The position numbers were made by a program, and so were the translations under genes. From Thermoflexales bacterium (GTDB lineage Bacteria > Chloroflexota > Anaerolineae > Fen-1058): a DNA stretch of 64,000 bases. Every line of letters starts with the position of its first letter. Positions within the stretch are counted from its first letter, which is position 1. The notes beneath the pieces are model-generated. The model ran no database searches and was not told where the DNA came from. It worked only from the letters and a program-made list of their open reading frames with translations. The stretch spans positions 21,361 to 85,360 of the forward strand of contig DAOTXX010000019.1 of the NCBI GenBank assembly GCA_034434835.1, given 5' to 3'. Shown here in pieces: positions 43,301 to 58,322 of the stretch.

Positions 43301-43432
43301 CCTGGCCGCACCTCGTTCATCTCGCCGCTGGCGACGCTGCAAGCCCAACCATCGCCATTCAGGTCGCCATTGCCTACGCCTACACAGTCCAGTTCGTTTG
43401 TTTCACCGTTGCCCACGCCAGCGAGCCCATAA
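40316..43432 (+). CDS. Secreted lipoprotein: large zinc metalloprotease (HExxH) with proprotein-convertase P-domain and Pro/Ser/Thr-rich C-terminal tail
   Basis: The lipobox is LVISAC. The P-domain reads CTIPITAALPGATVIGVSVRFDITHPRAQDLVMELVGPD...NGNWTLRVRDEAPGEAGTW. HELGHQYMYN is the HExxH motif. The C-terminus carries AYLPLILKNG followed by an SPLPTP repeat tail. Confidence 0.75.
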   Translation: MRRAFSLAIVAMFIAGLVISACGPGATPGKTLQGDNTVKIKLAEPVRFNEPVAVTITVQVEKEFPEFEIYLLTHDSDAIIEGERKWTIHAYAHQPVSVTSSVRFTREGDFEVMAQTHDPTLGGWVLAGHQYVRITRAGGTVNPPPDRLPGTPGGLIRVTPLSSIPTPLAPPTPPDKPTPSPPSTPQVMVVNANPALNLPIPDNGAWVTCTIPITAALPGATVIGVSVRFDITHPRAQDLVMELVGPDKTTVYRVWDRKTPTRDDFEWSIRKTPLPETTPGPLIPSASQLAVFNGQPVNGNWTLRVRDEAPGEAGTWLNASLVVNYLRPTSGQVVPPHLLAGKSLMGAQAAAQGDWQIITTEDFEGEWPVFSPGWYVRDLNWDGYERYWDDDDYLAHSGAWAAWPARGGADGLDPQYFYYPNNMDTRMIYGPFDLSDAVMADTDFYLWREIEAYDYLVFEVSHDGATFEPKVYWSGSSGWEFQDVYYNNYVGDNTVWIAWRFYSNSSGFDDGPFVDDIRIWKKTAGDVTASGYFYYYDRDDNLVPAKFTRVRLYDAAVGGGGYELGATTTDASGRWTIGPILNQDEPGQFTLDLYAVVELDVNDSLSSRRRVTDFGDQTYRWYTQTFYDVPDGTVDFGGLAISNGDVQEAAMWIFQDMRRGWEHTRHNPDTDPGSSTARWERNKDSLAPCANECFWPFPPVNGMFIPDVRKSSADIVVHELGHQYMYNASGLWVDLSCLGPHQLFERRGQLCAWAEGWADFLSLAVNVDPCYDWGMGPCGARGGAFENLEIPTWPVPPDQRPTGDAVEGRVAGALYDLFDSADDGYDQTNFGFTPIWNIVHTAPAEYSLADFWNRWKANGNPKHRAVQAIYQNTIDYDTAPIIANLPDCIVLQNLTWNDAIDLWQYSFDPESFDWELTWQIVNTTDPRCGAGVDTLGNIDLAPQPGWLGSCDVTVRVCDGIKTGDDTFTVNVVLVRGRAYLPLILKNGGAQAQSTQPGRTSFISPLATLQAQPSPFRSPLPTPTQSSSFVSPLPTPASP

Positions 43433-43528: not shown

Positions 43529-45487
<1,959 letters not shown>

Positions 45488-45907: not shown

Positions 45908-47902
45908 ATGGCAAAAAAGATACGAACACCGCAGGAGGCCAGCGCTGATGCGGCGGCCATGGCGCTTCTGGACCGAGCGTTGAGATTAGAGGTCGAGACG
46001 TGTTTCGTGCGCGCCGACGAGATCGCGCCCTGCCCCATCGGATCCGATGGCCTCTGCTGCCGCAACTGCGCGATGGGGCCTTGCCGTCTGGTGGGGAACG
46101 TCAAACGCGGCGTGTGCGGAGCGACGATAGATACGGTGGTAGCTCGCAACTTTGCCCGGGCCGTGGCGGTCGGCGCGGCCGCGCACTCGGACCATGGGCG
46201 GGGGCTGGCCTATACACTGTTGGAGGCCGCCGAGGGGCACGCGCCAGATTACCAGATTCGTGACCCCTTCAAGCTGCGCGAGATGGCCGGTTACCTGGGC
46301 GTCCAGTCCGACGGGCGGCCGCTGAACGAGGTCGCGAAAGATGTCGCGCTGGCAGCCCTGGGCGAGTTCGGCCGGCTTCAGGGAGAATTGATCTATCTGA
46401 AGCGCGCGCCGGACAGGCGGCAGCAAATCTGGCGCGACCTGGGGATCGCCCCGCGTGCCATAGATCGCGAAGTGGTCGAACTCTTGCATCGCACCCACAT
46501 TGGCAACGACCAGGACGCCGAGCACATCCTGGATCAGGCCATGCGCTGCGCGTTGGCCGATGGCTGGGGCGGCTCGATGCTCGCCACCGACCTGACCGAT
46601 ATCCTCTTTGGCACGCCTTCTCCGATCCAATCGGAAGCGAATCTGGGTGTGCTGCGGCCGGACATGGTCAACATCATTGTCCACGGCCACGAGCCGACAC
46701 TTTCCGAGATGATTGTCGCGGCGTCGCTGGACCCCGAGCTGGTCGCCTATGCCAGGAGCAAAGGGGCACAGGGCATCCAACTGGCGGGCATCTGTTGCAC
46801 CGCCAACGAGACGCTCTTGCGAGAAGGCATCCCGCTGGCGGGGAACTTTTTGATGCAAGAGCTGGCCGTCCTCACCGGCGCGGTCGAGGCGATGGTCGTG
46901 GACATCCAGTGCATCTTTCAGGGCCTGGTCTCTGTGGCGGAGCGCTTCCACACCGAGATCATCACCACCTCGCCCAAAGCCAAGATCACGGGCGCCACGC
47001 ACATCGAGTTCGAAGAGCGCCGGGCGCTCGAGATCGCCAAAGAGATCGTCCGCCGGGCGATTGACCGCTTCCCGCAGCGCGGCGAGACTATGATCCCCGA
47101 CGTCCACAGCGCGCTGGTGCCGGGCTTTTCACACGAGTACATTGATTATGCGCTGGGCGGCATCCATCGAGGGTCTTTCCGCCCGCTCAATGATGCCATC
47201 ATGCAGGGGCGCATCCGCGGCGTGGTCGCCAACATCGGCTGTAACAATGCCCGCATCCCTCACGACTCGCTGCACCGCTACGTGGTCCAAGAGTTCCTCA
47301 AGAACGATGTCCTGGTCGTCGAGACCGGTTGTGGCGCGATCGCCAGCGCCAAGCAGGGCTACATGACGCCCGAGGCGGCCTGGGAAGCCGCCGGGCCGGG
47401 CCTGCGCGAAGTCTGCGAGGCGGTGGGCATGCCGCCGGTGCTGCACATGGGCTCTTGCGTGGACAACTCGCGCATCCTGAGCGTCCTTTCCCAGATGGCA
47501 ACCGAGACCGGCCTGGGCGACGACATCGCCGACATTCCGGCCGTCGGCATGGCGCCCGAGTGGATGAGTGAAAAGGCCCTGTCCATTGCGACTTATTGTG
47601 TGGCTTCCGGGGCGTATGTGATCATGGGCGGCCGCAACCCCGTAGAAGGCAGCGAGACCGTCACGCGCCTGATCAGCGAGGGATGGGAAAAGAAAGTGGG
47701 CGGCAAGCTCGAGTTCATCGAAGACGGCGCCGAGATCGTCCGCCGGGCGCTGGCCCACATTGACGCCAAGCGGGCCGCGCTTCATCTGGCCGAGTACGAT
47801 CCCTCCAGGTGGGGCAAGAGCGGCGACTGGCGTTTGCCCACGCTGCTGGAACTCCCACTGGAAGAACGAGTCGAAGCGGTTTATGGAGCACCGGTGAGGT
47901 AG
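45908..47902 (+). CDS. cooS: Carbon monoxide dehydrogenase catalytic subunit (Ni,Fe-CODH; AcsA/CooS)
   Basis: The B/D-cluster motif is CPIGSDGLCCRNCAMGPCRL. The protein is 664 aa and lies immediately upstream of acsB. Confidence 0.9.
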   Translation: MAKKIRTPQEASADAAAMALLDRALRLEVETCFVRADEIAPCPIGSDGLCCRNCAMGPCRLVGNVKRGVCGATIDTVVARNFARAVAVGAAAHSDHGRGLAYTLLEAAEGHAPDYQIRDPFKLREMAGYLGVQSDGRPLNEVAKDVALAALGEFGRLQGELIYLKRAPDRRQQIWRDLGIAPRAIDREVVELLHRTHIGNDQDAEHILDQAMRCALADGWGGSMLATDLTDILFGTPSPIQSEANLGVLRPDMVNIIVHGHEPTLSEMIVAASLDPELVAYARSKGAQGIQLAGICCTANETLLREGIPLAGNFLMQELAVLTGAVEAMVVDIQCIFQGLVSVAERFHTEIITTSPKAKITGATHIEFEERRALEIAKEIVRRAIDRFPQRGETMIPDVHSALVPGFSHEYIDYALGGIHRGSFRPLNDAIMQGRIRGVVANIGCNNARIPHDSLHRYVVQEFLKNDVLVVETGCGAIASAKQGYMTPEAAWEAAGPGLREVCEAVGMPPVLHMGSCVDNSRILSVLSQMATETGLGDDIADIPAVGMAPEWMSEKALSIATYCVASGAYVIMGGRNPVEGSETVTRLISEGWEKKVGGKLEFIEDGAEIVRRALAHIDAKRAALHLAEYDPSRWGKSGDWRLPTLLELPLEERVEAVYGAPVR

Positions 47903-47914
47903 AAGGGGGAAGAA

Positions 47915-50197
47915 ATGTCACGATACATCGCAACACGCGCCATTCGCGGCGCCAATGCTCTCGTGGCCGAGGCGGATGCCTTGCTGGCCAAGACCATCGC
48001 CGAAAAGGGAGCCGATACGCCCGTGGCCTTTCCCAACACCGCCTACTACCTGCCGGTGGCTTTGGGGATGCTCGGGCATGAGGTGAGCAAACTGGGCGAC
48101 CTGGTACCGGTGATGGACTATGCCAAAAAGCTGCTGCACCCGGTGCCGAACGGCCAGGTCTGGGTTCCTTACTTGGGTGAGACGCTGGACGCCGGACAGG
48201 CGACCCTGCTGGCCGCTGAAACCATCGAAGGTGTTCGCTTTGCGTTAGGGCAGCAGCCGGAGCCTTATCCCGGCTTTCATCTGGCCGGCGGCACTTCGTT
48301 CACCAGCCCCGAGTTCGAGGCGGCGGCCGGCGATGGCCATCTCAACGGCCCGATTGACGACATCCAACTGCGCAGTTGGGGCATCCAGTTGGTGGATGGC
48401 CGGATGCCCGGCTTTGCGGCCATCGTCGGCGCGGCGCGCACCAACCAAGCCGCCGTGGCCATTGTGCGCGAACTTCAACAGCGCAACATCCTGGTCTTTC
48501 TCTCCGGCAACGTCAATGGCCGCTCGATCATTGACCAGTTGAATGAAGAAGGCGTGGAGATGGGGTACGACACTTACATCGTCCCCTTTGGGCGCGACAC
48601 GATCTCGGCCATCTATGCCCTGGGTTTTGCCACCCGCTCGGCGCTGACGTTTGGCGGCATGAAGGGCGGCCAATGGCGCAAGATTTTGCTCTATAACAAG
48701 TTCCGCGTCTTTGCCTTTGTCCTGGCGTTGGGCGAGGTAGATGACTTGAAGTATGCGGCGGCGGCCGGGGCGATCTCGTATGGCTTCCCCACCATCGCCG
48801 ATACCGTCATTCCGCAGATCCTCCCCACGGGCGTCACCCGCTACGAGCACGTGATCTCGATGCCGTGGAACGAGATAGACGCCGAGACCGACGAGGAGAA
48901 AGCGGCCAAGCTCGTCCAGCGCTGCATCGAGGTGCGCGGCGTCAAGGTGCGGATCACCCAGGTGCCCATCCCGGTGCCTTACGGTTCCGCGTTCGAAGGC
49001 GAAGTCGTCCGCAAGCAGGATATGCGCGTCGAGTTCGGCGGCAAACACTCGCGCTGCTTCGAGTACCTCAAGATGGCCGATTTCGACGCGGTGCAGGACG
49101 GCAAGATCACGATCGTCGGCCCGGGCTTTGAAAACGTCGAGCCGCAGGGCGCGACGGACATGGGCATCGTCGTCGAGGTGGCCGGCCGCAAGATGCAAAA
49201 GGACTTTGAGCCGGTGCTGGAGCGGCAAATCCACCACTTTGTCAACGGCGCGTCGGGCATCCAGCACATCGGCCAGCGCGACATTGCCTGGATCCGCATC
49301 AGCAACACTGCCGCCGACAAGGGTTTTACGCTGAAGCACTTTGGGGAGATCCTCATCGCGCGCTTCAAGTCCGACTTTGGCGCGATCGTGGACAAGGTGC
49401 AGGTCACGATCTATACCGAGCCGAACGAGTTTGCCAGGCAGTTAGAGAGCGCCCGCGCGGCGTACCAGGAGCGCAACATCCGTCTGGCCGATATGACCGA
49501 TGAGAGCGTGGATGTGTTCTATTCGTGCACGCTGTGTCAGAGTTTTGCGCCGACGCACGTGTGCGTCGTCAGCCCGCAGCGGCTGGGCCTGTGCGGTGCC
49601 TACAACTGGCTGGACTGCAAGGCCAGTTTCGAGATCAACCCGACTGGCCCCAACCAACCGATCCCCAAGGGACAGACGATAGACGAGTGGAAAGGCGTCT
49701 TTAGCGGCCCGGTCGAGTTCGTCTACGACCACAGCCAGCGCACGGTGGATAGCGTCACGATGTACTCGATCATGGAAAAGCCGATGACGGCCTGCGGCTG
49801 CTTCGAGTGCATCGCCATGCTCATCCCCGAAGCGAACGGCATCATGGTCGTCAGCCGCGAAGACCCAAGCATGACACCCGCGGGCATGACGTTCTCGACA
49901 TTGGCGGGCATGGCCGGCGGCGGCCTGCAGACGCCGGGCGTCATGGGCGTGGGCAAGTATTTCTTGACCAGCCCCAAGTTCATCCGCGCCGATGGCGGCT
50001 TCAAGCGCGTGGTGTGGATGTCGTCCGTCCTCAAAGAGACGATGGCGGCCGAACTGCAAGCTGTGTGCGAACGCGAAGGCGATCCTGATCTGATTGCCAA
50101 GATCGCCGACGAACGTGCAGTCACGTCGGTGGACGAGTTGCTGGCCTGGCTCGAAGAGCATCAGCATCCTGCGCTCACGATGCCGCCGATATTCTAA
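47915..50197 (+). CDS. acsB: Acetyl-CoA synthase (CODH/ACS alpha subunit, A-cluster)
   Basis: The A-cluster cysteine motif is CTLCQSFAPTHVCVVSPQRLGLCGAYNWLDC. The protein is 760 aa. Confidence 0.9.
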   Translation: MSRYIATRAIRGANALVAEADALLAKTIAEKGADTPVAFPNTAYYLPVALGMLGHEVSKLGDLVPVMDYAKKLLHPVPNGQVWVPYLGETLDAGQATLLAAETIEGVRFALGQQPEPYPGFHLAGGTSFTSPEFEAAAGDGHLNGPIDDIQLRSWGIQLVDGRMPGFAAIVGAARTNQAAVAIVRELQQRNILVFLSGNVNGRSIIDQLNEEGVEMGYDTYIVPFGRDTISAIYALGFATRSALTFGGMKGGQWRKILLYNKFRVFAFVLALGEVDDLKYAAAAGAISYGFPTIADTVIPQILPTGVTRYEHVISMPWNEIDAETDEEKAAKLVQRCIEVRGVKVRITQVPIPVPYGSAFEGEVVRKQDMRVEFGGKHSRCFEYLKMADFDAVQDGKITIVGPGFENVEPQGATDMGIVVEVAGRKMQKDFEPVLERQIHHFVNGASGIQHIGQRDIAWIRISNTAADKGFTLKHFGEILIARFKSDFGAIVDKVQVTIYTEPNEFARQLESARAAYQERNIRLADMTDESVDVFYSCTLCQSFAPTHVCVVSPQRLGLCGAYNWLDCKASFEINPTGPNQPIPKGQTIDEWKGVFSGPVEFVYDHSQRTVDSVTMYSIMEKPMTACGCFECIAMLIPEANGIMVVSREDPSMTPAGMTFSTLAGMAGGGLQTPGVMGVGKYFLTSPKFIRADGGFKRVVWMSSVLKETMAAELQAVCEREGDPDLIAKIADERAVTSVDELLAWLEEHQHPALTMPPIF

Positions 50198-50209
50198 AGG
50201 CGAAAGGTT

Positions 50210-50256
50210 GAAGGATGAAGGATGAAGGCGGGAAGGTTTTTCGTCCTTCATCCTTC
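50210..50256. repeat. Heptamer-periodic hairpin (GAAGGAT x2...ATCCTTC) acting as probable terminator after acsB
   Basis: The sequence reads GAAGGATGAAGGATGAAGGCGGGAAGGTTTTTCGTCCTTCATCCTTC. Confidence 0.55.
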
Positions 50257-50364
50257 CTCAGTATGACCCCGACGTCGCGCAGACCGATCGGGGTTTCTGT
50301 CTGTCATCGCTTGCCAGTTTAGGGTATAATAATGTGACGTGGTAGGTGATATGTAAACAGTTAG

Positions 50365-51471
50365 ATGGAGCGTGTAATGACTGGGCAACGATCTCGATCC
50401 AAAACCCTGATTAGCTGTATCACCGTGATTGTCGCCATTGCACTGGGGCATGGATTATCTACAAGCGACGCTCGAACACTTCCACGAACAACATTTCTTT
50501 CTCCACAACAACAATTGACGCCACGAGCTTGGTTACCCATTGTCATGAACAATTTCCCGCCTGTTCCGACTATATCTCGTTACCTGGCTAACACAAATAC
50601 TGTGAGTTATTCCTTTCTCTATAATCTTGGCTACAGCAGAGGACAGGCAACCTCGGCTGGCCAAAATGTCGTTATCATCCTTGATTTTGGCTATCCTGAC
50701 TATGATCCAGCGACGGGGCAGTATGGCGCAACGCTTCTTGTTGATAGAACTTTTCACAGCACTAGTGACATTTTGTATGCTGTTGAAGGATTTCTTTCTG
50801 GCTTCTATGCAGGCTCTCCCGCTGGTGCGCATCTCACACTTGCCATTGGAGTAAACAACAATGGTGCTGGCGTCACGGGGCCACATGGCGCGGCATGGGC
50901 GCAAACTGTGAATGGTCTGAATAGCTGGATCAGTATTCCACCAAGCTACGCGGACAAACTTGCTGTATGGGGAGCTATAGACGCCGAACTTCCGTGGAAT
51001 AACGCACAGGTCACACGCGCGTGGGTAGACGGTTATCAATCTACTTACGCGTTTGGTTCGTTCTACCTAAACTTTGGTTCGTGCGATGGTTGTCCAGTTG
51101 CAATGTGTCCTTCTCCAGATCATTCTGTGGGCTATGGTTGGACGTGCGATGACATCTGGTATGTGTCTTACGGCGCGACACCAGCGTACCCGATGCCCGA
51201 GATTTACTTGACAAGCGGCATAAACGCTGCTCAATGGTATGGAATGAGCTTGTATGCTTATAGCAATCACGGCGCCCGCATGAACTTTCGCGGTTCGGTA
51301 ACGCAATGGAATGCCTGCCAAGAACAAACTGATCCCAATGCATGCATCTATCCTGTCAGGACTGATAATATGCCCGCACAAGGCTACTTGCAGTTGTACA
51401 ACGCGATCAATGCCGACTGGCGAACAGCGGCGACAATGCCTTGGTCAACTGACATGAGTTGGCAAAAATAG
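50365..51471 (+). CDS. Low-GC insertion gene 1: signal-anchored Cys-rich secreted protein of unknown function (contains LPIVMNN motif after the TM helix)
   Basis: The TM helix is LISCITVIVAIALG. The protein is 368 aa and Gly/Tyr/Trp/Asn-rich, with Cys pairs (GSCDGCPVAMCPS; NACQEQTDPNAC). The A/T-rich codon usage is unlike its neighbours. Confidence 0.6.
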   Translation: MERVMTGQRSRSKTLISCITVIVAIALGHGLSTSDARTLPRTTFLSPQQQLTPRAWLPIVMNNFPPVPTISRYLANTNTVSYSFLYNLGYSRGQATSAGQNVVIILDFGYPDYDPATGQYGATLLVDRTFHSTSDILYAVEGFLSGFYAGSPAGAHLTLAIGVNNNGAGVTGPHGAAWAQTVNGLNSWISIPPSYADKLAVWGAIDAELPWNNAQVTRAWVDGYQSTYAFGSFYLNFGSCDGCPVAMCPSPDHSVGYGWTCDDIWYVSYGATPAYPMPEIYLTSGINAAQWYGMSLYAYSNHGARMNFRGSVTQWNACQEQTDPNACIYPVRTDNMPAQGYLQLYNAINADWRTAATMPWSTDMSWQK

Positions 51472-51489
51472 AAGGAAAGCGAGGTATCT

Positions 51490-52260
51490 ATGGTCTCCAG
51501 TGTAACTAGTTCTCGCCTAGAACAAGAACGAATGAGTGCTATGCTGGGTGTTCTTTTGCCGTGCGTATTATTCGTGTTGTGTTTGTTTCTGTCTGCATGT
51601 TTTGTTCCACCCGAATCAGGTTTAGCGCCTACTGTGGCTTTGCAAACTTCTGCATTGGATGCTACGCAAACTGCGGGCAGGGTATTGGCTTCTACTAAAG
51701 AAGCATCATTGAAAATGGCACAGCAAACGGCGGAAAGTGCTCGCTTAACGCCCCAACCTACTGGCTGGGCCATAAAGTTAACACCAAGTGTGGTTATAGT
51801 GTCTACACCCGCCCCGGCCATTTTTGTTCCTGAACGGCAAAGCACACCAGCAGGGGCAGGCGCTATCTTGAACGTCAAGTTAATACCACCGTTTTACACA
51901 CATGATTTTATTGTTGAGAACGTTTGGTATAGAGACTTTGATGGAGGAATCCAACGCGTATACGTTTACGGTGGATTCATACCCGATCCAAAGGGAGCGC
52001 CTACACCGCAAGGAGTAGTAGTTGTTCAGGTATTAAAAATGGATGCTCAAGGAAATCCGCAAATGATCTATTATGGGCGTTTTCCTACTCAGATGCAGGC
52101 AGGGCCAGTGCGCGTCACGGACGCAGTTGGCGAACGGTTGGTTCTTGAATCAACCAATGGGACTAGATTTTATTTTGATGTTCCATTACGCCAGTTTGTG
52201 CCTTCGCTCACGTGGGTTAGTCCCGTTGCAACACCTAGCCCGCAACCTGCCCGACCCTAA
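51490..52260 (+). CDS. Low-GC insertion gene 2: putative lipoprotein of unknown function
   Basis: The N-terminus is MLGVLLPCVLFVLCLFLSAC, with LSAC as the lipobox. The protein is 256 aa, and its AT-rich composition matches gene 1. Confidence 0.55.
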   Translation: MVSSVTSSRLEQERMSAMLGVLLPCVLFVLCLFLSACFVPPESGLAPTVALQTSALDATQTAGRVLASTKEASLKMAQQTAESARLTPQPTGWAIKLTPSVVIVSTPAPAIFVPERQSTPAGAGAILNVKLIPPFYTHDFIVENVWYRDFDGGIQRVYVYGGFIPDPKGAPTPQGVVVVQVLKMDAQGNPQMIYYGRFPTQMQAGPVRVTDAVGERLVLESTNGTRFYFDVPLRQFVPSLTWVSPVATPSPQPARP

Positions 52261-52380
52261 TGTGCTCAATCAAAATTGACCGAGCCGATCCGGTCAACCA
52301 TTGTGCTGTCACTGCCAGAATAACACAATTGCCCGACGAATCGTTTGATTTCTCAAAGACACTAAAGGAGGTCATCCATC

Positions 52381-53331
52381 ATGCCTGTCACCATCGAAAT
52401 CCCCAAAGAAAAATGGACTGGCAGGGTCCGTGAAATCACATTGGGCGCGACCGCTGCCGAAGGCGGGTCACGCAAAAAGACGGTTACCGTGGGCGGTGAA
52501 GCGACATTGCCCTTTTTGCATTTTGAAGGCGCGATCCCGCACCCGCCGGCGATCGCCCTCGAAATCAAAAGCCGCAAGCCCGATGACTGGTCGCCATTGC
52601 TGCTGCACGCCTGGGGCGAGGCAGCCAATGATCCGGGCGAGTGGGCCGGGGCCGCGGAAGCCGCTGGCGCGGACATTATCCTTCTGACGCTTTCCCTCCA
52701 GGACACGCCCGACGAGGCCAAGGCCGCGCTCAAGAAGGTGTTGGGCGTCACCGGGTTGCCGGTGGCGGTCTTTGGCCCCGGTCAGGCCGATAAGGACAAT
52801 GAACTGCTGGTGCCGGTCGCCGAAGCAGGCGCCGGCGAAAAGCTGCTGCTGGGCGTGTGCGAGGACAAGAACTATCGCACCATCGTCGCCGCTGCGCTCG
52901 CGCACGGCCACCTGGTAGACAGCCGCACGCCGATGGACGTGAACCTGTCCAAGCAGCTCATCATCCTCATCAAAGACATGGGCATGCCGCTGGAACGCAT
53001 CATCATGGATCCGAGCACGGGCGCGTTGGGCTATGGCATTGAATACGGCTATTCGGTGATGGAGCGCCTGAGGCTGGCCGCGCTGGGCGGAGACGGCATG
53101 ACGCAGCAGCCGATGCTCGTCACGGTGGGCGAGGAAGCCTGGAAGGTCAAAGAGGCCAAGGTTGGCGAAGGCGTCCCGGCGGCGTGGGGCGATTGGAAAG
53201 AACGCTCTATCAACTGGGAAGTGCTCACTGCGTCCGCCCTGATCGAATCCGGCGCGGACATTCTCGTCATGCGCCACCCCGAATCGGTCAAGCGCGTCAA
53301 GGCTATGATCGCCGAGCTGATGACAAAATAA
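52381..53331 (+). CDS. acsD: Corrinoid iron-sulfur protein small subunit (CODH/ACS delta; AcsD)
   Basis: The protein aligns with Moorella AcsD along its full length (LGATAAEGGSRKKTVTVGGEATLPFLHFEG; IDPSTGALGYGIEYGYSVMERLRLAAL; ILVMRHPESV). The RBS is AAAGGAGG. Confidence 0.9.
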   Translation: MPVTIEIPKEKWTGRVREITLGATAAEGGSRKKTVTVGGEATLPFLHFEGAIPHPPAIALEIKSRKPDDWSPLLLHAWGEAANDPGEWAGAAEAAGADIILLTLSLQDTPDEAKAALKKVLGVTGLPVAVFGPGQADKDNELLVPVAEAGAGEKLLLGVCEDKNYRTIVAAALAHGHLVDSRTPMDVNLSKQLIILIKDMGMPLERIIMDPSTGALGYGIEYGYSVMERLRLAALGGDGMTQQPMLVTVGEEAWKVKEAKVGEGVPAAWGDWKERSINWEVLTASALIESGADILVMRHPESVKRVKAMIAELMTK

Positions 53332-53337
53332 TCAAGG

Positions 53338-53565
53338 GTGACACACCCTATGGAGGATACTATGGCTGGGATGACCTGGGAGATGTTTTTCCAGATGATG
53401 ATGGCGGAAGAAAACGCCGCCCGTGACAAGTACAGGCTGGCGATGGAAAACGCCGAATCGCCAGAATTGAAAAAGGTCATGGAGCGACTGATGAACGAAG
53501 AAGCCGTTCACGCCGAAGTGCTGAGAGGCGAGTACGAACGGCTAACTAAAAAGATGAAGGTTTGA
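53338..53565 (+). CDS. Small helical ferritin-like/rubrerythrin-like hairpin protein (single ExxH)
   Basis: It is 75 aa. Two helices are predicted, carrying E..Y (MAEENAARDKY) and ExxH (EEAVHAE). Confidence 0.4.
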   Translation: MTHPMEDTMAGMTWEMFFQMMMAEENAARDKYRLAMENAESPELKKVMERLMNEEAVHAEVLRGEYERLTKKMKV

Positions 53566-53574
53566 GGAAAAGCA

Positions 53575-53811
53575 ATGGTTTCCGCGGAAGAGTACGCACG
53601 GATGAAAGAAGTGGTTGAGACGATCAGCCACTATGCTCAAATCTATCACAGCGGGACAGTCGAGTTGGCAGACTTTGACGGCGAGCACGTCAAAGTCAAG
53701 ATGGGTGGCGCGTGCGAAGGCTGCCCGCTCCTGCCGTGGACGCTCAAAATGACGGTCGAGCGCACCATCCACGATCTGTTCCCCAATGTGAAATCGGTCG
53801 AGGCTGTCTGA
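53575..53811 (+). CDS. NifU-like (Nfu) Fe-S cluster scaffold domain protein
   Basis: The protein is 78 aa. It reads VELADFDGEHVKVKMGGACEGCPLLPWTLKMTVERTIHDLFPNVKSVEAV, with the NifU C-terminal CxxC motif. Confidence 0.75.
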   Translation: MVSAEEYARMKEVVETISHYAQIYHSGTVELADFDGEHVKVKMGGACEGCPLLPWTLKMTVERTIHDLFPNVKSVEAV

Positions 53812-53872
53812 GTCAAACGTCGAGCGTCAAACGTCATGACGTCTTGCGTTTGACGTTTCACGTCTGATACCA
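53812..53872. repeat. Heptamer-periodic hairpin (GTCAAACGTC x2 / GACGTTTGACGTTTCACGTC) after nfu
   Basis: The sequence reads TGAGTCAAACGTCGAGCGTCAAACGTCATGACGTCTTGCGTTTGACGTTTCACGTCTGA. Confidence 0.55.
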
Positions 53873-53887
53873 CAAGGAGAACACACC

Positions 53888-55261
53888 ATGGCCCTTTCTG
53901 GACTCGAAATCTACAAGTTGCTCCCCGGTGGGCTAAAGCCGCCACATCCCAAAGCCAACTGCAAGGAATGTGGCTTTCCCACCTGCCTGGCGTTTGCGAT
54001 GAAGCTGGCTGCCAAGCAAGCCGAGCTCGGTCTGTGCAAGTACGTCAGCGACGAGGCGAAGGAAAAGCTGGAGGCTTCGGCCGCGCCGCCGATCCGCCTC
54101 ATCGCCTTGACCGCCGGTGATCGCAAGGCGCAGGCAGGTAACGAGATCGTCTTGTTCCGGCACGAAAAGACCTTTTTCAACCGGCCCGGCTTGTTTGTTC
54201 GGATCAAAGACACGCTGCCTGAAGCCGAAGCCAAAGCGCTGATCGATCAGGTCGCCCATTACATGGTGGACTATGTCGGCATTGAGCTGAGGATGGACGG
54301 CCTGGCGGTCGAAGCTGCGTCGGGCGATGCCGGCAAATTTGCGAACATGGTCAAGCTGGCCGCTGCCGCCAGGCTGCCGCTTGTCCTGATGGCAAGCGAC
54401 AAGGCGGTCATGGAAGCGGGTCTCAATGCGGCGGCGCCCATCGTCCCGCTGCTCTATGCGGCGGACGAATCCAACTGGCAGGCGATGAGCGAGTTGGCCA
54501 AGGCCAAGAATGCCCCGCTGGCGCTGCGGGGCAAAGGCGACTTGCAAGCTCTGGCGAACCTGGCCGATCAGGTCAAGAACGCCGGGCTGCAAGACCTGGT
54601 GCTCGACCCGGGCGCGCGCGGCTTTGCCGATAGTCTGCAAATCGCCACACAGATGCGACGACTGGCGATCAAGGCCAATCAGCGCGCGTGTGGCTTTCCG
54701 CTCATCACCTTCCCTGGCGAAGGCCCTGGCCCCGAGCTGGAAGCGTCGCTCGCCGCGCAGCATATTGCCAAGTACGGCGGCTTTGTCGTGCTCGACCACT
54801 TTAGCCCGGCGCTAGCCTACCCTCTGCTCGTCTTGCGGCAGAACATTTACACCGATCCACAAAAACCGGTCCAGGTGCAGCCCGGCATTTACGAGATCAA
54901 CAATCCCAAGCCGGAATCGCCAGTGTTTGTGACGACCAACTTTTCGATCACCTACTTTGCCGTCAAGAACGAAGTGGAAGGCAGCGGCATCCCGGCCTGG
55001 CTGCTCATCGCCGACGCCGAAGGTATGTCCGTGCTCACGGCCTGGGCCGCGGGCAAGTTCGATGCGGACAAGATCGTCAAGACGGTCAAGACCTCCAACA
55101 TCGAAAGCAAGATCGGTCACAAAAAGATCGTTATCCCCGGTGCAGTGGCTGTGCTTTCGGGCGAGGTCGAAGGCGAACTGCCCGGCTGGAACATCATGGT
55201 CGGCCCGCGCGAGGCCGTGGACATTCCATCGTACTACAAGAATGTGTGGAAGGCAGCCTGA
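53888..55261 (+). CDS. acsC: Corrinoid iron-sulfur protein large subunit (CODH/ACS gamma; AcsC)
   Basis: The N-terminal 4Fe-4S motif reads CKECGFPTCLAFAMKLA...CKYVSDEA, and the TIM-barrel region includes VLDPGARGFADSLQ. The protein is 457 aa with full-length similarity to Moorella AcsC. The RBS is AAGGAG. Confidence 0.9.
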   Translation: MALSGLEIYKLLPGGLKPPHPKANCKECGFPTCLAFAMKLAAKQAELGLCKYVSDEAKEKLEASAAPPIRLIALTAGDRKAQAGNEIVLFRHEKTFFNRPGLFVRIKDTLPEAEAKALIDQVAHYMVDYVGIELRMDGLAVEAASGDAGKFANMVKLAAAARLPLVLMASDKAVMEAGLNAAAPIVPLLYAADESNWQAMSELAKAKNAPLALRGKGDLQALANLADQVKNAGLQDLVLDPGARGFADSLQIATQMRRLAIKANQRACGFPLITFPGEGPGPELEASLAAQHIAKYGGFVVLDHFSPALAYPLLVLRQNIYTDPQKPVQVQPGIYEINNPKPESPVFVTTNFSITYFAVKNEVEGSGIPAWLLIADAEGMSVLTAWAAGKFDADKIVKTVKTSNIESKIGHKKIVIPGAVAVLSGEVEGELPGWNIMVGPREAVDIPSYYKNVWKAA

Positions 55262-55548
55262 CCTATCAGCGGGAGGGGGCTTTGGGACGTTTAAAGCCTC
55301 AGGCCCTTGAATATTTGCGCGGATATGCTCTGGCAGGCGAGTTCTTGAACGCCGAGCGCACAGAGCGTTTGGCGCGTATGACGCCGGAAGAGTCCAGAGC
55401 CATCTTTGACCAGTTGTGCGAGATATGGAATCGCACCGGGAGCAAGACGGGTGGTCATTTGGACGCGCTCGATGAATTGCGAGTTCGGTCGCTTTTCGCA
55501 CAGCGCCGCGCATTCGAGTTGTATGCCACGTCCAGGGGGCTGGTGTGA
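55246..55548 (+). CDS. Small helical protein, putative antitoxin-like partner of the downstream nucleotidyltransferase
   Basis: It is 100 aa. Its stop overlaps the next start (ATGA), and it begins inside the last codons of acsC. Confidence 0.4.
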   Translation: MEGSLTYQREGALGRLKPQALEYLRGYALAGEFLNAERTERLARMTPEESRAIFDQLCEIWNRTGSKTGGHLDALDELRVRSLFAQRRAFELYATSRGLV

Positions 55549-56117
55549 ATCCGCAGTTAGAGGCTGCCTGGGAGCTGCACCAGTTCCTGACGAGAGCGGG
55601 TATCCCGTATGGGATCATTGGAGGAATCGCGGTTCAGTTTTGGGGACGGCCACGCTTGACTGAGGATGTGGATTTGACCATTGCTGTTCCACTGGACGAA
55701 TCAGAACCGGTGGTACGCGCTATCGTTGAACGCTTTCATTCCCGTCACCCTGATCCGCTGGATTTTGCTCGCCGTACGCGGGTTGTGTTAATTCACGCTT
55801 CCAATGGATGTCCAGTGGATATTTCTCTGGCGCTGCCCGGCTATGAGGATGAAATGATGCGCCGGACTGTGAACTATGAGATTGAGCAAGGCCAAGTCGT
55901 GCGGCTTTGTTCAGCCGAAGACCTGATTATTCACAAAGCGGTAGCGGGCCGACCTCAAGACGTGGCTGACATAGAAGGTGTTGTCTATCGTCAGCAAGAC
56001 AGGCTCGACGTGAGCTATATCCGGCTGTGGCTGCGTGAGTTTGCGGCTTTGCTGGGGCAACCCGAGCGAATCGAGCTATTTGAGAAACCATGGCGAGAGT
56101 TACATTCGACCGCGTGA
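55545..56117 (+). CDS. Minimal nucleotidyltransferase-fold protein (AbiEii/MNT-like toxin family)
   Basis: It is 190 aa. The GG..(x)n..DVD motif (GGIAVQFWGRPRLTEDVDLTI) is typical of pol-beta-type nucleotidyltransferases in TA modules. Confidence 0.5.
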   Translation: MNPQLEAAWELHQFLTRAGIPYGIIGGIAVQFWGRPRLTEDVDLTIAVPLDESEPVVRAIVERFHSRHPDPLDFARRTRVVLIHASNGCPVDISLALPGYEDEMMRRTVNYEIEQGQVVRLCSAEDLIIHKAVAGRPQDVADIEGVVYRQQDRLDVSYIRLWLREFAALLGQPERIELFEKPWRELHSTA

Positions 56118-56381: not shown

Positions 56382-58322
56382 ATGCCTCGAGTCGTCTTTC
56401 ACCCGGGCGGAATCGCCGTTGACGTTCCTGTCGGATCGCTGATCCAGGAGGCCGCTCGAAAAGCCGGCGTAGAGATCGGGATGCCGTGCGGTGGACAAGG
56501 CCGCTGCGGGCGCTGCGCTGTCCGGGTTGAATCTGGAGCGGTGCGTCGTCGCTCGACCCTGCGCCTCTCGGCGGCTGACGTGCAGGCCGGTTACGCGCTG
56601 GCCTGCCAGACGGTCGTGGATGGTGACGCGGTCGTCCACGTCCCGCCGCAGGAAAAGCTCGAGCGCCGCCTCACCAGCGACAAGTCTGCGGCTCAGGTCA
56701 CCCTGCCCTTCGCCTACGACTATACGCGCGACCAGACCGTGCGCACGTTCTTTGTCCGCGTGGACCCACCCTCATATGCCGACAACACCGACGATTACGC
56801 CCGGCTGTGCCGGGCGCTGGCGGCCCAGCATAACGTTCGAAACATCCGCGCGACGCTGGGGGCGCTGCAACATCTCAGCGAGGATTTGCGAGCGGCGGAC
56901 TGGGATGTGACGGCAGTGTTGGAGATGAGCAATTGGCTCTCGCCGAACGGTCCTCCCCGGCTCATCGGCGTGTTCCCCGGCTATGTCCCAGCGATGTGGG
57001 GCGTGGCAATTGACATTGGCACCACCAGCAATGTCGTGTACCTGGTCAACCTGGAAACCGGCGAGGTAGTGGACACGGCCGCCGACTATAATGCTCAGAT
57101 CAAGCGCGGCGAAGATGTCATCAGCCGCATCATCTACGCCAGTAAGGATAGCGGGCTGAGCGAGCTGCAGCAGTTGGTCGTCGGCACGCTGAACCGGCTG
57201 ATCGAGCGGCTGTGTCGCCGCCAGCAGATCGAGCCAAACGTGATTTGCAAAGCCGTCGTGGCGGGCAATACGACGATGATGCATCTGTTCCTGGCCTTGC
57301 CGCCGGAAGTGATCCGCAAAAGCCCCTTCGTGCCGACGGTCAATCATATCCCGCCGCTCGTGGCGCGCAATGTAGGATTGAACGTTCATCCTGAGGCAGC
57401 GCTCGATTGCCTGCCGGGCGTCGCCAGTTACGTCGGCGCGGACATCACGGCGGGCGTCGTCGCCAGCGGGCTGGATCGCGCCGGGGCGCTGACCATGTTC
57501 ATTGACATTGGCACGAACGGCGAGATTGTCTTGGGCGATGGCTCATGGCTGATCTCGTGCGCGTGCAGCGCCGGCCCGGCGTTCGAAGGCGCCGGGGTGC
57601 AGTTTGGGATGCGCGCCACCGCCGGGGCGATTGAAGAAGTGTGGATTGACCACCAGACGCTGGAGCCGACGATCCGCGTCATTGGGAATGAAAAGCCGCG
57701 CGGCGTTTGCGGCAGCGGGTTGATCTCGCTGCTGTCGGAAATGTTTATCACCGGCGTGATTGACCGGGGCGGCAATTTCAACCTGGCGGCCCATCACCCG
57801 CGGATCCGAGAAGGCGAACACAGCGGCGAGTACGTCGTGGTGTGGGGCGATCAGACCGCCGACGGGCGCGACATTGTCATCACCAAAGTGGACGTGGACA
57901 ACCTGGTGCGCACCAAAGCCGCCATCTACGCGGGCTTTAGCGTGCTGGCGCAAAGCGTGGGCCTCCAGCTTTCGGACGTGCAGGACTTTATCATCGCGGG
58001 CGCGTTCGGGCAGTACATCAACATCGAAAAAGCGATCCAGATCGGCCTCTTGCCGGACATGCCCTGGGAGCGATTCCGCTTCTTGGGCAACACGAGCGTG
58101 CTCGGCGCATACATGGCGTTGCTTTCGCCGCAGGCGCGGGCGCGCATCGCCGAAGCCGCCAGCAAGCTCACATACCTTGAGCTATCGGCTGACAACTCGT
58201 TCTACGATCAGTTCACGTCGGCCATGTTTTTGCCACATACGGACATTACCAGATTCCCATCCGTGCAGCAGGTCCTGAGCCTTCCCACGACCGAACAGGA
58301 CGGTTCGCGCACGACAGCCTGA
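56382..58322 (+). CDS. acsV: Reductive activator of corrinoid protein (RACo/AcsV): N-terminal 2Fe-2S ferredoxin + ASKHA ATPase (DUF4445)
   Basis: The plant-type 2Fe-2S motif is CGGQGRCGRCAV...C. An ASKHA-fold ATP-binding core follows. The protein is 646 aa. Confidence 0.82.
   Translation: MPRVVFHPGGIAVDVPVGSLIQEAARKAGVEIGMPCGGQGRCGRCAVRVESGAVRRRSTLRLSAADVQAGYALACQTVVDGDAVVHVPPQEKLERRLTSDKSAAQVTLPFAYDYTRDQTVRTFFVRVDPPSYADNTDDYARLCRALAAQHNVRNIRATLGALQHLSEDLRAADWDVTAVLEMSNWLSPNGPPRLIGVFPGYVPAMWGVAIDIGTTSNVVYLVNLETGEVVDTAADYNAQIKRGEDVISRIIYASKDSGLSELQQLVVGTLNRLIERLCRRQQIEPNVICKAVVAGNTTMMHLFLALPPEVIRKSPFVPTVNHIPPLVARNVGLNVHPEAALDCLPGVASYVGADITAGVVASGLDRAGALTMFIDIGTNGEIVLGDGSWLISCACSAGPAFEGAGVQFGMRATAGAIEEVWIDHQTLEPTIRVIGNEKPRGVCGSGLISLLSEMFITGVIDRGGNFNLAAHHPRIREGEHSGEYVVVWGDQTADGRDIVITKVDVDNLVRTKAAIYAGFSVLAQSVGLQLSDVQDFIIAGAFGQYINIEKAIQIGLLPDMPWERFRFLGNTSVLGAYMALLSPQARARIAEAASKLTYLELSADNSFYDQFTSAMFLPHTDITRFPSVQQVLSLPTTEQDGSRTTA

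Follow-up and report, generated by a model that had tools for sequence, protein, structure and literature searches.

How does a pair of apparently foreign genes come to lie within a core operon of the Wood-Ljungdahl pathway, what do these genes encode, and has their arrival damaged the operon? The questions are raised by the interval between acsB and acsD in a Thermoflexales contig, of which a stretch of 64,000 nucleotides (the window) was analysed. A reading of the sequence alone had described there an AT-rich insertion of approximately 2 kb, carrying two open reading frames (ORFs) with distinct A/T-ending codon usage, and had taken it to be horizontally acquired. We consider it probable that a foreign two-gene operon was inserted behind the native acsD promoter, that the occupied allele then spread by homologous recombination and that the cargo is a pair of cell-envelope enzymes.

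Composition, empty site and distribution

The AT-rich stretch is real and its limits are sharp. In 300-nt windows the GC content is 0.45-0.52 at approximately 50150-52400 compared to 0.59-0.67 on either side, and the lowest GC bins of the whole 64-kb window fall at 50-52 kb. The same discontinuity is seen in codon usage. ORF1 and ORF2, both of which have conserved homologues, have third-position GC contents (GC3) of 0.458 and 0.385, respectively, as against 0.77-0.83 for FTHFS, acsA, acsB, acsD, acsC and AcsV, a gap of about 0.35-0.4 with respect to the flanking genes; the flanking acs genes are 60-66% GC. A base and codon composition unlike that of the host is one mark of a genomic islet. The features of the region are listed in Table 1.

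Table 1. Features of the acsB-acsD region, with positions numbered along the window
Feature	Position	Strand	Details
acsB (acetyl-CoA synthase), left flank	47915-50197	+	Pfam ACS_CODH_B_C, CdhC, CODH_A_N; NCBIfam NF040764; native composition, GC3 0.82
Tract near-identical to L095	50171-52454	+	10 substitutions and 2 indels in ~2.28 kb; flanks of 82-88% identity on both sides
Native GAAGGAT-repeat hairpin, directly 3' of the acsB stop	50210-50256	+	17-nt arms, 94% complementary
Native terminator-like hairpin (CCCCGA...UCGGGG), then UUUCUGUCUGUC	50265-50305 (hairpin 50265-50295)	+	-16.4 kcal/mol
Native internal promoter (predicted)	50301-50330 (-10 box 50325-50330)	+	CTGTCA, 18-nt spacer, TATAAT; 10/12 consensus matches
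Left TAATGTG copy, 7-nt direct repeat at the left junction	50330-50336	+	Read from sequence
Foreign AT-rich block, maximal extent	50331-52363	+	2,033 nt; 45-52% GC; stands where the empty site has a native acsD leader of 91 nt
ORF1	50377-51471	+	364 aa; signal/anchor helix, disordered linker with conserved (Y/F/W)LP motif, (beta/alpha)8 TIM barrel
ORF2	51490-52260	+	256 aa; predicted lipoprotein, lipobox L-S-A-C37; low-complexity linker; conserved beta-meander domain, residues ~118-235
Right TAATGTG copy, overlapping the ORF2 stop TAA (52258-52260)	52258-52264	+	Read from sequence
Spacer from ORF2 to the acsD ribosome-binding site (RBS)	52261-52363	+	Unstructured fold, z 0.1
acsD RBS AAAGGAGG and acsD, right flank	RBS 52364-52371; acsD 52381-53331	+	Pfam CdhD; NCBIfam NF003376; native composition

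A close relative, L096, presents the empty site at the same locus. The acsB and acsD genes of L096 are 259 nt apart, and its acsB clusters with that of the window at 90% identity. The L096 sequence aligns to window positions 46466-50330 and 52364-54819, with nucleotide identities of 87.5% and 79%, respectively, and just 91 nt separate the two stretches. Neither ORF1 nor ORF2 occurs in any of 80 other species-level acs loci of Anaerolineae, among them that of the most syntenic relative, L020, with a gap of 287 bp. The same gene pair is present in unrelated genomic contexts (L002, L004, L006, L090, L093 and many of L097-L176). Within the close subclade, the GC content of the pair is 5-13 points lower than that of its host contig; for most of the distant members of the family, composition is host-like and synteny is stable. 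The closest homologue outside the lineage is 61-63% identical. We found no direct donor of the cassette and, among the pair-bearing loci, no DNA similarity of the cassette flanks beyond coding regions. The GC3 gap, the empty site in L096, the absence from the other acs loci and the occurrence of the pair in unrelated contexts together uphold the proposal of horizontal acquisition.

Might ORF1 and ORF2 instead be ancestral acs accessory genes, lost by most relatives, or be tied functionally to acetyl-CoA synthase? They are placed within the operon on the same strand, and elsewhere in Anaerolineae the acsB-acsD gap holds genes for CBS-domain, FNR-like, GyrI-like and galactokinase proteins. These other gap genes have native GC3, whereas the pair does not, and it is the pair that is missing from all 80 loci and from the close relative and that is found elsewhere without any acs genes. 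A Wood-Ljungdahl accessory or maturation protein should co-occur with acs genes and be cytoplasmic, whereas both proteins here carry predicted export signals and would be extracytoplasmic. The idea is effectively refuted.

An assembly or binning artefact, a chimeric contig joining unrelated DNA, has also to be considered, as the composition changes abruptly and every sequence comes from metagenome assembly. Identical junctions are, however, present in four independent assemblies derived from different samples and pipelines: the window itself (an NCBI contig of 125.7 kb), Logan L001 (SRR10095340) and JGI L094/L095 (3300010938, 3300003891), the last three being Chocolate Pots samples. Such an artefact is hardly credible.

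Junctions, probable promoter capture and the proposed route of entry

Two hairpins follow acsB. The first, the GAAGGAT-repeat structure at 50210-50256, has a folding energy of -29.5 kcal/mol (z -4.1), with analogues in L012, L060, L053 and L096, and L095 carries one additional 7-nt repeat unit in this region (a 7-nt indel at 50208). The sequence-only reading had named it the acsB terminator. A stable hairpin it is, but it lacks a U-tract and the terminator-like element is instead the second hairpin. The latter is kept in L012 and L096 as CCCCGGCG...GCCGGGG TTTTTGTCTGTC. Next comes a predicted internal promoter, for which the block GTTTAGGGTATAAT is identical in L012 and L096; the likeness to the empty site stops at 50330, the last base of the -10 box. 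A TATAAT box had been noted at about 50314, and the box is present although its position is 50325-50330. By comparison with L012 and L096, in which it is conserved together with the upstream terminator, the box is native and lies outside the cassette. The predicted promoter would drive the acsD unit in relatives and seems here to have been captured by the cassette.

We considered whether the TATAAT box is a component of the cassette, since a similar motif precedes the ORF1 homologue of L006. This was rejected because GGGTATAAT recurs at intergenic sites of many Anaerolineae loci, other acsB-acsD gaps included, and because the terminator-promoter block is also present in the empty site. The pattern of recurrence marks GGGTATAAT as a predicted lineage-typical -10 element.

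At the right-hand side the likeness to relatives resumes at 52361-52366. The acsB gene, acsD and the acsD RBS are all intact, in keeping with the earlier view that the operon was left undisrupted. The spacer between ORF2 and the RBS may be a retained, diverged native leader: over the first 20 nt it is similar to the beginning of the native leaders of L012 (p ~0.004) and L096 (p ~0.04). Retention of the leader over its full length was rejected, the similarity not being significant (z 1.7), and the first 20 nt alone are suggestive. No terminator or promoter was found on the + strand between ORF2 and acsD. With the cassette directly behind the native promoter, and no such site separating ORF2 from acsD, co-transcription of ORF1, ORF2 and acsD would appear the likeliest arrangement. 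The earlier reading had allowed both for co-transcription and for a separate promoter.

What brought the cassette here? No transposase, integrase or recombinase gene lies within approximately 6 kb on either side, where all the neighbours are Wood-Ljungdahl genes, and the sole tRNA lies at a distance of 29 kb. The borders show neither terminal inverted repeats nor flanking repeats of at least 10 nt, and neither ORF matches a transposase family, which sets the cassette apart from insertion sequences, transposons and MITEs. A prophage or phage module is likewise not indicated, there being no relatives of the cassette on 2.9 million viral contigs and no PHROGs match. The locus holds no Rfam family; a sub-threshold M23 match, antisense in acsA, is taken as chance. 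The earlier statement that transposase, integrase and clear direct repeats are lacking thus stands for repeats of at least 10 nt, to which we add that the 7-nt sequence TAATGTG occurs at both edges. In shuffled junction windows of 35 nt a common 7-mer arises with a chance of 0.015; the repeat was spotted post hoc, and a meaning of the two copies for insertion is suggestive at most.

It is this repeat that invites thoughts of a dedicated mobile element or of site-specific delivery, for example through a circular intermediate recombining at a TAATGTG core with a recombinase encoded elsewhere. A TAATGT motif is also found upstream of the ORF1 homologues in L006 and L093, the close subclade repeatedly forms an AT-rich islet at differing positions, and L004 has an integrase, toxin-antitoxin genes and a group II intron within 6-10 kb. 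However, the right-hand sequences of other cassettes do not contain TAATGTG, and TAAT-like motifs are expected near promoters anyway. When the missing inverted and longer repeats, recombinase, nearby tRNA and viral-contig relatives are added, delivery of this kind appears unlikely.

We favour a simpler course of events. A two-gene operon of approximately 1.93-2.03 kb would have come from a lower-GC donor, probably another Chloroflexota genome or element, and been inserted into the acsD leader of a thermophilic hot-spring member of the Anaerolineae, immediately 3' of the native -10 box that follows the acsB terminator. Entry was most likely by illegitimate or microhomology-mediated recombination, possibly at TAATGTG, with no mobility genes aboard. 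In its present position the cassette would head the acsD-rbr-NifU-acsC transcription unit; the captured promoter probably serves its expression, and transcription probably continues from the cassette into acsD.

The encoded proteins

The start of ORF1 is likely ATG 50377, which is preceded by GGAG at 6 nt and is also the one chosen in public gene calls; the alternative at 50365 gives the 368 residues previously assigned. The signal/anchor helix then described is present, and so is the enrichment in Tyr, Trp and Asn, but 'Cys-rich' overstates a content of 1.9% Cys, with six in the mature part. The composition is typical of a secreted protein. An AlphaFold2 model (pLDDT 88.3, pTM 0.80) displays a confident TIM barrel. 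We identified 33 homologues, in which His174, Asp206, Glu208, Asp263, Cys243, Cys318 and Cys327 are invariant, and in the model the invariant polar residues Asp107, Asn165, His174, Asp206, Glu208, Asp263, Tyr281 and Gln314 are positioned at the C-terminal ends of successive strands.

The TIM-barrel fold and an invariant acid at strand 4 are features expected of a glycoside hydrolase of clan GH-A or of the GH18-like type. Asp206 and Glu208 directly follow the strand formed by residues 199-206, and their placement in the model points to a probable catalytic role. The invariant strand-7 nucleophile glutamate of clan GH-A has no counterpart, as Glu279 is replaced by leucine in P0024-P0030 and by aspartate in P0013. 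Nor does ORF1 belong, by profile, to a described glycoside hydrolase family. There is no match in Pfam, NCBIfam, PHROGs, PADLOC or PDB sequences, a relaxed Pfam scan (E up to 1) of 27 family members returned nothing relevant, and a search of PDB sequences with the family profile gave chance matches only. The fold search retrieved generic TIM barrels and no specific family. The barrel is without a close solved or annotated relative. From the Asp-x-Glu motif, further conserved Asp residues on the catalytic face and the secreted or cell-wall context we considered, as a lead, a likeness to the muramidase-type barrels of GH25/DUF1906 (Rv2525c-like), an identity that the fold searches did not support. 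The family is large, with at least 2,472 representative clusters at 50% identity, and all named members are from Chloroflexota. Fusions to Peptidase_M23, CBM_4_9, CE2_N and Golvesin_C domains occur.

The N-terminus of ORF2, ...SRLEQERMSAMLGVLLPCVLFVLCLFLSAC37, places a lipobox after a charged n-region and a hydrophobic h-region, as in bacterial lipoproteins, and most homologues have a cysteine at the equivalent position. The LSAC lipobox recognized earlier is therefore correct; the description as 'Cys-rich' is not, there being no cysteine after Cys37. The modelled beta-meander domain resembles two blades of a beta-propeller, and the fold search found generic propeller blades only. No match exists in Pfam, NCBIfam, PHROGs or PADLOC. 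In about 48 of 88 loci the two genes are neighbours or form a fusion, and in some species the ORF2 domain is fused to the C-terminus of ORF1-family proteins; P0023 is an example of a fused architecture. ORF2 is the conserved partner of ORF1. Amidase_3 was examined as a further conserved neighbour and discarded: it lies directly upstream in just 3 of 59 informative loci.

The pairing could also suggest a secreted toxin with its immunity protein, or a defence or conflict module of another kind, in which the lipoprotein ORF2 would act as an inhibitor and shield the producer from ORF1, a wall-degrading effector. The two genes are adjacent, compositionally foreign and at variable genomic positions, and there are decayed copies, truncated in L090, frameshifted in L093 and reduced to ORF2 alone in L091. 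In lysozyme and inhibitor pairs a lipoprotein is found beside an extracytoplasmic enzyme, and by analogy the present arrangement may resemble these. Yet the natural fusion of the ORF2 domain to the C-terminus of ORF1-family proteins is unusual for an immunity protein but usual for a binding or accessory domain, and propeller blades are unlike the known inhibitor folds. PADLOC assigns no family to either protein and PHROGs gives no match, markers of secretion systems or polymorphic toxins are absent from all contexts, and the host-like composition and stable synteny of most of the distant members look housekeeping. We judge a conflict module very improbable.

It is most likely that the pair acts on cell-envelope glycan or peptidoglycan, to go by the fold, the placement of residues, the fused domains and some neighbours. 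In the preferred reading the cargo is functionally unconnected with acetyl-CoA synthesis, ORF1 being a modelled extracytoplasmic TIM-barrel enzyme and ORF2 its predicted membrane-anchored lipoprotein partner. A bolder proposal, which we put forward tentatively and regard as doubtful, is that ORF1 founds a new family of extracytoplasmic glycan or peptidoglycan hydrolases, seen so far only in Chloroflexota and working as a two-component enzyme with a propeller-blade-like lipoprotein. Its AT-rich subclade would be a self-contained, promoter-capturing islet that inserts at a short TAATGTG-like core and sweeps related populations by homologous recombination.

Probable spread of the occupied allele and comparison with known systems

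The cassette is 99.5% identical in L095, of which acsB and acsD are 95% and 84% identical, respectively. The near-identical tract (Table 1) has sharp bounds, both in sliding identity and in the list of differences. Values of dS between the window and L095 are 0.012 for ORF1, 0.005 for ORF2, 0.172 for the 3' half of acsB and 0.451 for acsD. A near-identical cassette within diverged flanks argues that the occupied allele has spread recently, most likely by homologous recombination, and the tract at 50171-52454 would be the footprint of a recent transfer of that allele between diverged lineages. The partner lineage is 5-16% diverged, and short arms in the 3' part of acsB and the 5' part of acsD likely served for the exchange. 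Chimeric assembly of mixed strains could in principle generate such mosaic identity with L095. A placement of the cassette at the recombination junction of a mosaic operon was discarded; the mosaic is real but its breakpoint is mid-acsB.

The case is unusually well resolved. Foreign genes have entered the middle of a core Wood-Ljungdahl operon without breaking it, and empty and occupied sites are available at the level of single bases, together with what appears to be a captured native promoter and an allele spread between diverged hot-spring populations. This is clean but fairly ordinary horizontal gene transfer, and current understanding is not overturned. A large unannotated family of secreted TIM-barrel proteins with a dedicated lipoprotein partner is nevertheless reasonable to pursue in studies of the Chloroflexota cell envelope, which is poorly understood.

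With regard to ORF1, the closest parallels are glycoside hydrolases of the clan GH-A/GH18 type. Common to both are the (beta/alpha)8 barrel, the acidic Asp-x-Glu at the C-terminal end of the fourth core strand, an aromatic-rich, extracytoplasmic character and, in the family, fusion with domains that bind carbohydrate or act on peptidoglycan. GH5, GH18, GH26 and GH84 are among the weak fold matches.

With regard to the cassette, small horizontally acquired islets are known to spread when the core genes beside them undergo homologous recombination, in what are termed gene-specific sweeps. The present case resembles them in its atypical composition, its presence/absence polymorphism between close relatives, its precise empty and occupied sites, its lack of mobility genes of its own and the near-identity of the insert within diverged flanks. 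It differs in the cargo, an unannotated gene pair, and in position: known islets are found between operons or at a tRNA, whereas this cassette is inside a core catabolic and anabolic operon, between acsB and acsD, directly behind an internal promoter.

The acsB-acsD gap and an empty counterpart

The acsB-acsD gap is occupied by two ORFs. In 300-nt windows GC content is 0.45-0.52 at approximately 50150-52400, against 0.59-0.67 on either side, and nowhere in the 64-kb window is it lower than in the bins at 50-52 kb. The contrast is greater in GC3, with values of 0.458 for ORF1 and 0.385 for ORF2 compared to 0.77-0.83 for FTHFS, acsA, acsB, acsD, acsC and AcsV. The AT-rich block and the A/T-ending codon usage described in an earlier sequence-only reading are thus evident. 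That both ORFs filling the gap are real genes is clear from their homologs in a word-indexed database (33 for ORF1, 29 for ORF2), all unannotated, the named ones belonging to Chloroflexi or Anaerolineae metagenome-assembled genomes. For ORF1 the favoured start, on both public gene calls and the alignment of homologs, is ATG 50377 (364 aa), with GGAG 6 nt upstream.

Features of the acs region in window coordinates
Feature	Position	Strand	Remark
P-domain ORF	40316-43432		directly 5' of FTHFS
FTHFS	43529-45487		Wood-Ljungdahl cluster
acsA/CODH	45908-47902		Wood-Ljungdahl cluster
M23 sRNA match, sub-threshold	47485-47554	-	antisense within acsA
acsB	47915-50197		left of gap
GAAGGAT-unit hairpin	50198-50262		post-acsB
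ORF1	50377-51471		cassette
ORF2	51490-52260		cassette
acsD	52381-53331		right of gap
Rubrerythrin-like, then NifU-like gene	53338-53811		3' of acsD
acsC	53888-55261		Wood-Ljungdahl cluster
190-aa ORF	55545-56117		between acsC and AcsV
AcsV	56382-58322		Wood-Ljungdahl cluster

Eighty species-level loci with acsB were retrieved, almost all from Anaerolineae or Chloroflexota genomes, and in none of these does an ORF1 or ORF2 homolog lie within 6 kb of acsB. The closest relative by synteny and most genes, L020 (FTHFS 89%, acsD 81%, acsC 81%, AcsV 75%), has a gap of 287 bp. The decisive locus is L096 (ENA ERZ1392003), whose acsB falls in the same 90%-identity cluster as that of the window. It aligns with window positions 46466-50330 at 87.5% and 52364-54819 at 79%, with only 91 nt between the two stretches. 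Downstream of the acsB stop codon both sequences carry two hairpins, one built of GAAGG repeats and one with a GC stem and a T-run behind it, as well as the block GTTTAGGGTATAAT. Similarity ends with the final base of the TATAAT box (50330) and restarts at AAAGGAGG (52364), the acsD ribosome-binding site. These junctions indicate that 2,033 nt of foreign DNA occupy the position of a 91-nt leader; the promoter and leader start are common to L096 and L012, another Anaerolineae locus. The proposal of an inserted foreign cassette is upheld by this empty site and by the 80 loci.

The post-acsB hairpin is made of tandem GAAGGAT units. The cassette carrier L095 has one unit more (1141-1215), a 7-nt indel at 50208, and comparable hairpins of the GAAGG-repeat type lie behind acsB in L012, L053, L060 and L096.

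Other genes of the region deserve comment. The 1,038-aa ORF with a proprotein-convertase P-domain is atypical in composition (GC 0.53-0.56, GC3 0.59), has a counterpart in none of the 80 acs loci and is probably a further acquired secreted-protein gene. The 75-aa rubrerythrin-like and 78-aa NifU-like genes, in a stretch where GC is lower (0.50-0.55), are both present in L020 only among the 80, with single weak matches in L050 (rubrerythrin-like, 41%) and L052 (NifU-like, 37%); the close lineages L094, L095 and L096 each carry both. The 190-aa ORF (GC3 0.54) has no NCBIfam match; L094 has a same-length gene at this position and the acs loci of other species have no counterpart. The M23 sRNA match (Rfam; 28.3 bits, below the gathering score of 41.2; E 0.04) is most likely due to chance.

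Entry of the cassette and its spread between lineages

How did the cassette arrive? The sequence-only reading saw no transposase, integrase or clear direct repeats, and we likewise find no recombinase among the neighbouring genes and neither repeats of at least 10 nt nor terminal inverted repeats at the borders. No tRNA was found nearby, no Rfam family and no relative on viral contigs. Delivery by a dedicated site-specific system appears improbable. A 7-mer, TAATGTG, does occur at each edge (50330-50336 and 52258-52264), the right copy overlapping the ORF2 stop codon; the probability of a common 7-mer in shuffled 35-nt junction windows is 0.015, although we caution that the motif was spotted post hoc. 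The 20 nt past the ORF2 stop look like the opening 20 nt of the native leader (p approximately 0.004 for L012 and 0.04 for L096), while similarity of the whole ORF2-acsD spacer to the native leader is not significant (z 1.7). The data are consistent with, and do not prove, a 1.93-kb insert that has a 7-bp duplication or crossover site at its borders and the native leader kept downstream. We favour microhomology-mediated illegitimate recombination, perhaps following DNA uptake, as the route of entry.

The cassette is also present, with identical junctions, in L094 and L095 (JGI 3300003891). The L094 contig, 99% identical to the window, comes from IMG 3300010938, a co-assembly of Chocolate Pots hot-spring sediment, Yellowstone (PMC6137239). 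Between the window and L095 nucleotide identity is 99.6% for ORF1 (dS 0.012) and 99.5% for ORF2 (dS 0.005), against 84% for acsD (dS 0.451); the acsB 3' half is 95.1% identical (dS 0.172). The near-identical tract, approximately 50171-52454, holds ten substitutions and two indels, and identity drops sharply to 82-88% at both ends. Purifying selection is unable to lower dS, so the low cassette values point to recent transfer between diverged lineages. On this pattern the cassette and short pieces of acsB and acsD must have moved together, with the caveat that metagenome assemblies may contain strain-mixture chimeras, which could produce the same pattern. For such a transfer homologous recombination would be the most economical route.

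The gene pair and its proposed function

ORF1 and ORF2 are adjacent in many unrelated contexts. The pair lies 5' of 2-oxoacid:ferredoxin oxidoreductase genes in L002, adjoins ruvB in L004, where an integrase, toxin-antitoxin genes and a group II intron also occur in the region, and is found 3' of an Amidase_3 gene in L006 and 5' of EF-G in L090. Decayed copies occur, ORF1 being frameshifted in L093 (6896-8699) and truncated N-terminally in L090 (7201-8675). L091 (3166-3831) has a solitary ORF2, flanked by duplicated Tricorn-like and Peptidase_M23 modules; the L090 and L091 sites are both 5' of an EF-G paralog. A metagenome scan contributed 80 further loci. An ORF2-type domain is directly 3' of, or fused to, the ORF1 homolog in approximately 48 of 88 loci, a linkage still seen at ORF1 identities as low as about 35%. 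Distant members of the family have the composition of their host; in the subclade nearest the cassette GC content is 5-13 points lower than in the host contigs. Of 58 loci, 21 exceed the host in AT content by more than 4 points and four are GC-richer. The family is thus an ordinary Chloroflexota chromosomal gene pair of which one subclade is horizontally mobile.

A profile search of 1.84 billion representatives gave 2,472 ORF1 clusters at E ≤1e-3 and 1,163 at E ≤1e-30, the named ones Chloroflexota without exception. The AlphaFold2 model of ORF1 is confident (pLDDT 88.3, pTM 0.80) and predicts a (beta/alpha)8 barrel preceded by an N-terminal helix (residues 9-32) and a disordered linker. As stated in the sequence-only reading, Tyr, Trp and Asn are abundant in ORF1; Lys and Glu are low. 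Alignment and model place the invariant or near-invariant polar residues (Asp107, Asn165, His174, Asp206, Glu208, Asp263, Tyr281 and Gln314) on the C-terminal ends of consecutive strands, where a TIM barrel canonically has its catalytic face. The fourth core strand closes with the Asp206-x-Glu208 motif, a position taken by the catalytic acid in GH18-type and clan GH-A enzymes. The seventh-strand glutamate is not invariant in the family, and this speaks against a GH-A mechanism of the classical type. In multidomain relatives the barrel is fused to Peptidase_M23 with Golvesin_C and CE2_N, to CBM_4_9, to Golvesin_C alone, to GSDH, or to DUF7948 with SBBP propeller repeats, and Amidase_3 is 5' of the pair in three loci. 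As a tentative working model, ORF1 and ORF2 might form a membrane-tethered two-component enzyme acting on cell-envelope glycan or peptidoglycan.

At residues 45-62 or so (window approximately 50500-50560), in the disordered linker that joins the signal or anchor helix to the barrel, the family alignment displays a short conserved motif, (Y/F/W)(L/F/I)P then hydrophobics, exemplified by AWLPIVM, SYLPLVT and KTFIPLF, which may be a Chloroflexota sorting or processing signal.

Transcription and place among known events

The acsB-acsD gap ranges from 12 to 2,975 bp across Anaerolineae (L010-L089). Since it is naturally variable, extra genes there are unsurprising in themselves. Other genomes have CBS-domain, FNR-like (reductases, 271-291 aa), GyrI-like or galactokinase genes there. 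Their GC3 is native, and often they have a promoter of their own with GGGTATAAT. This element is found between genes in many Anaerolineae loci, other acsB-acsD gaps included, and is therefore a lineage-typical -10 element; an internal promoter in the gap is normal. The + strand of the ORF2-acsD spacer, which folds as unstructured, has no terminator-like or promoter-like site. Where the sequence-only reading left a choice between co-transcription and separate promotion, the spacer thus favours a joint transcript, and ORF1, ORF2 and acsD are probably transcribed together from the captured promoter.

The operon itself is a mosaic. For FTHFS, acsD, rbr, NifU, acsC and AcsV the nearest counterparts are those of L020 (66-89% identity). 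The window acsA shares 82-83% identity with L010, L011 and L013 and only 67% with L020, and acsB residues 90-330 or thereabouts share 93-97% with L010 against 60-83% with L020. The breakpoint is in mid-acsB, at approximately 48.9-49.0 kb, and not at the cassette.

The observation made from the sequence is confirmed and its interpretation supported. The cassette is a small horizontally acquired islet that probably spread by homologous recombination of its flanks, an event of a known kind. What distinguishes it is its place in the acs operon, immediately after an internal promoter, together with empty and occupied sites resolved at base level and an unannotated cargo family.
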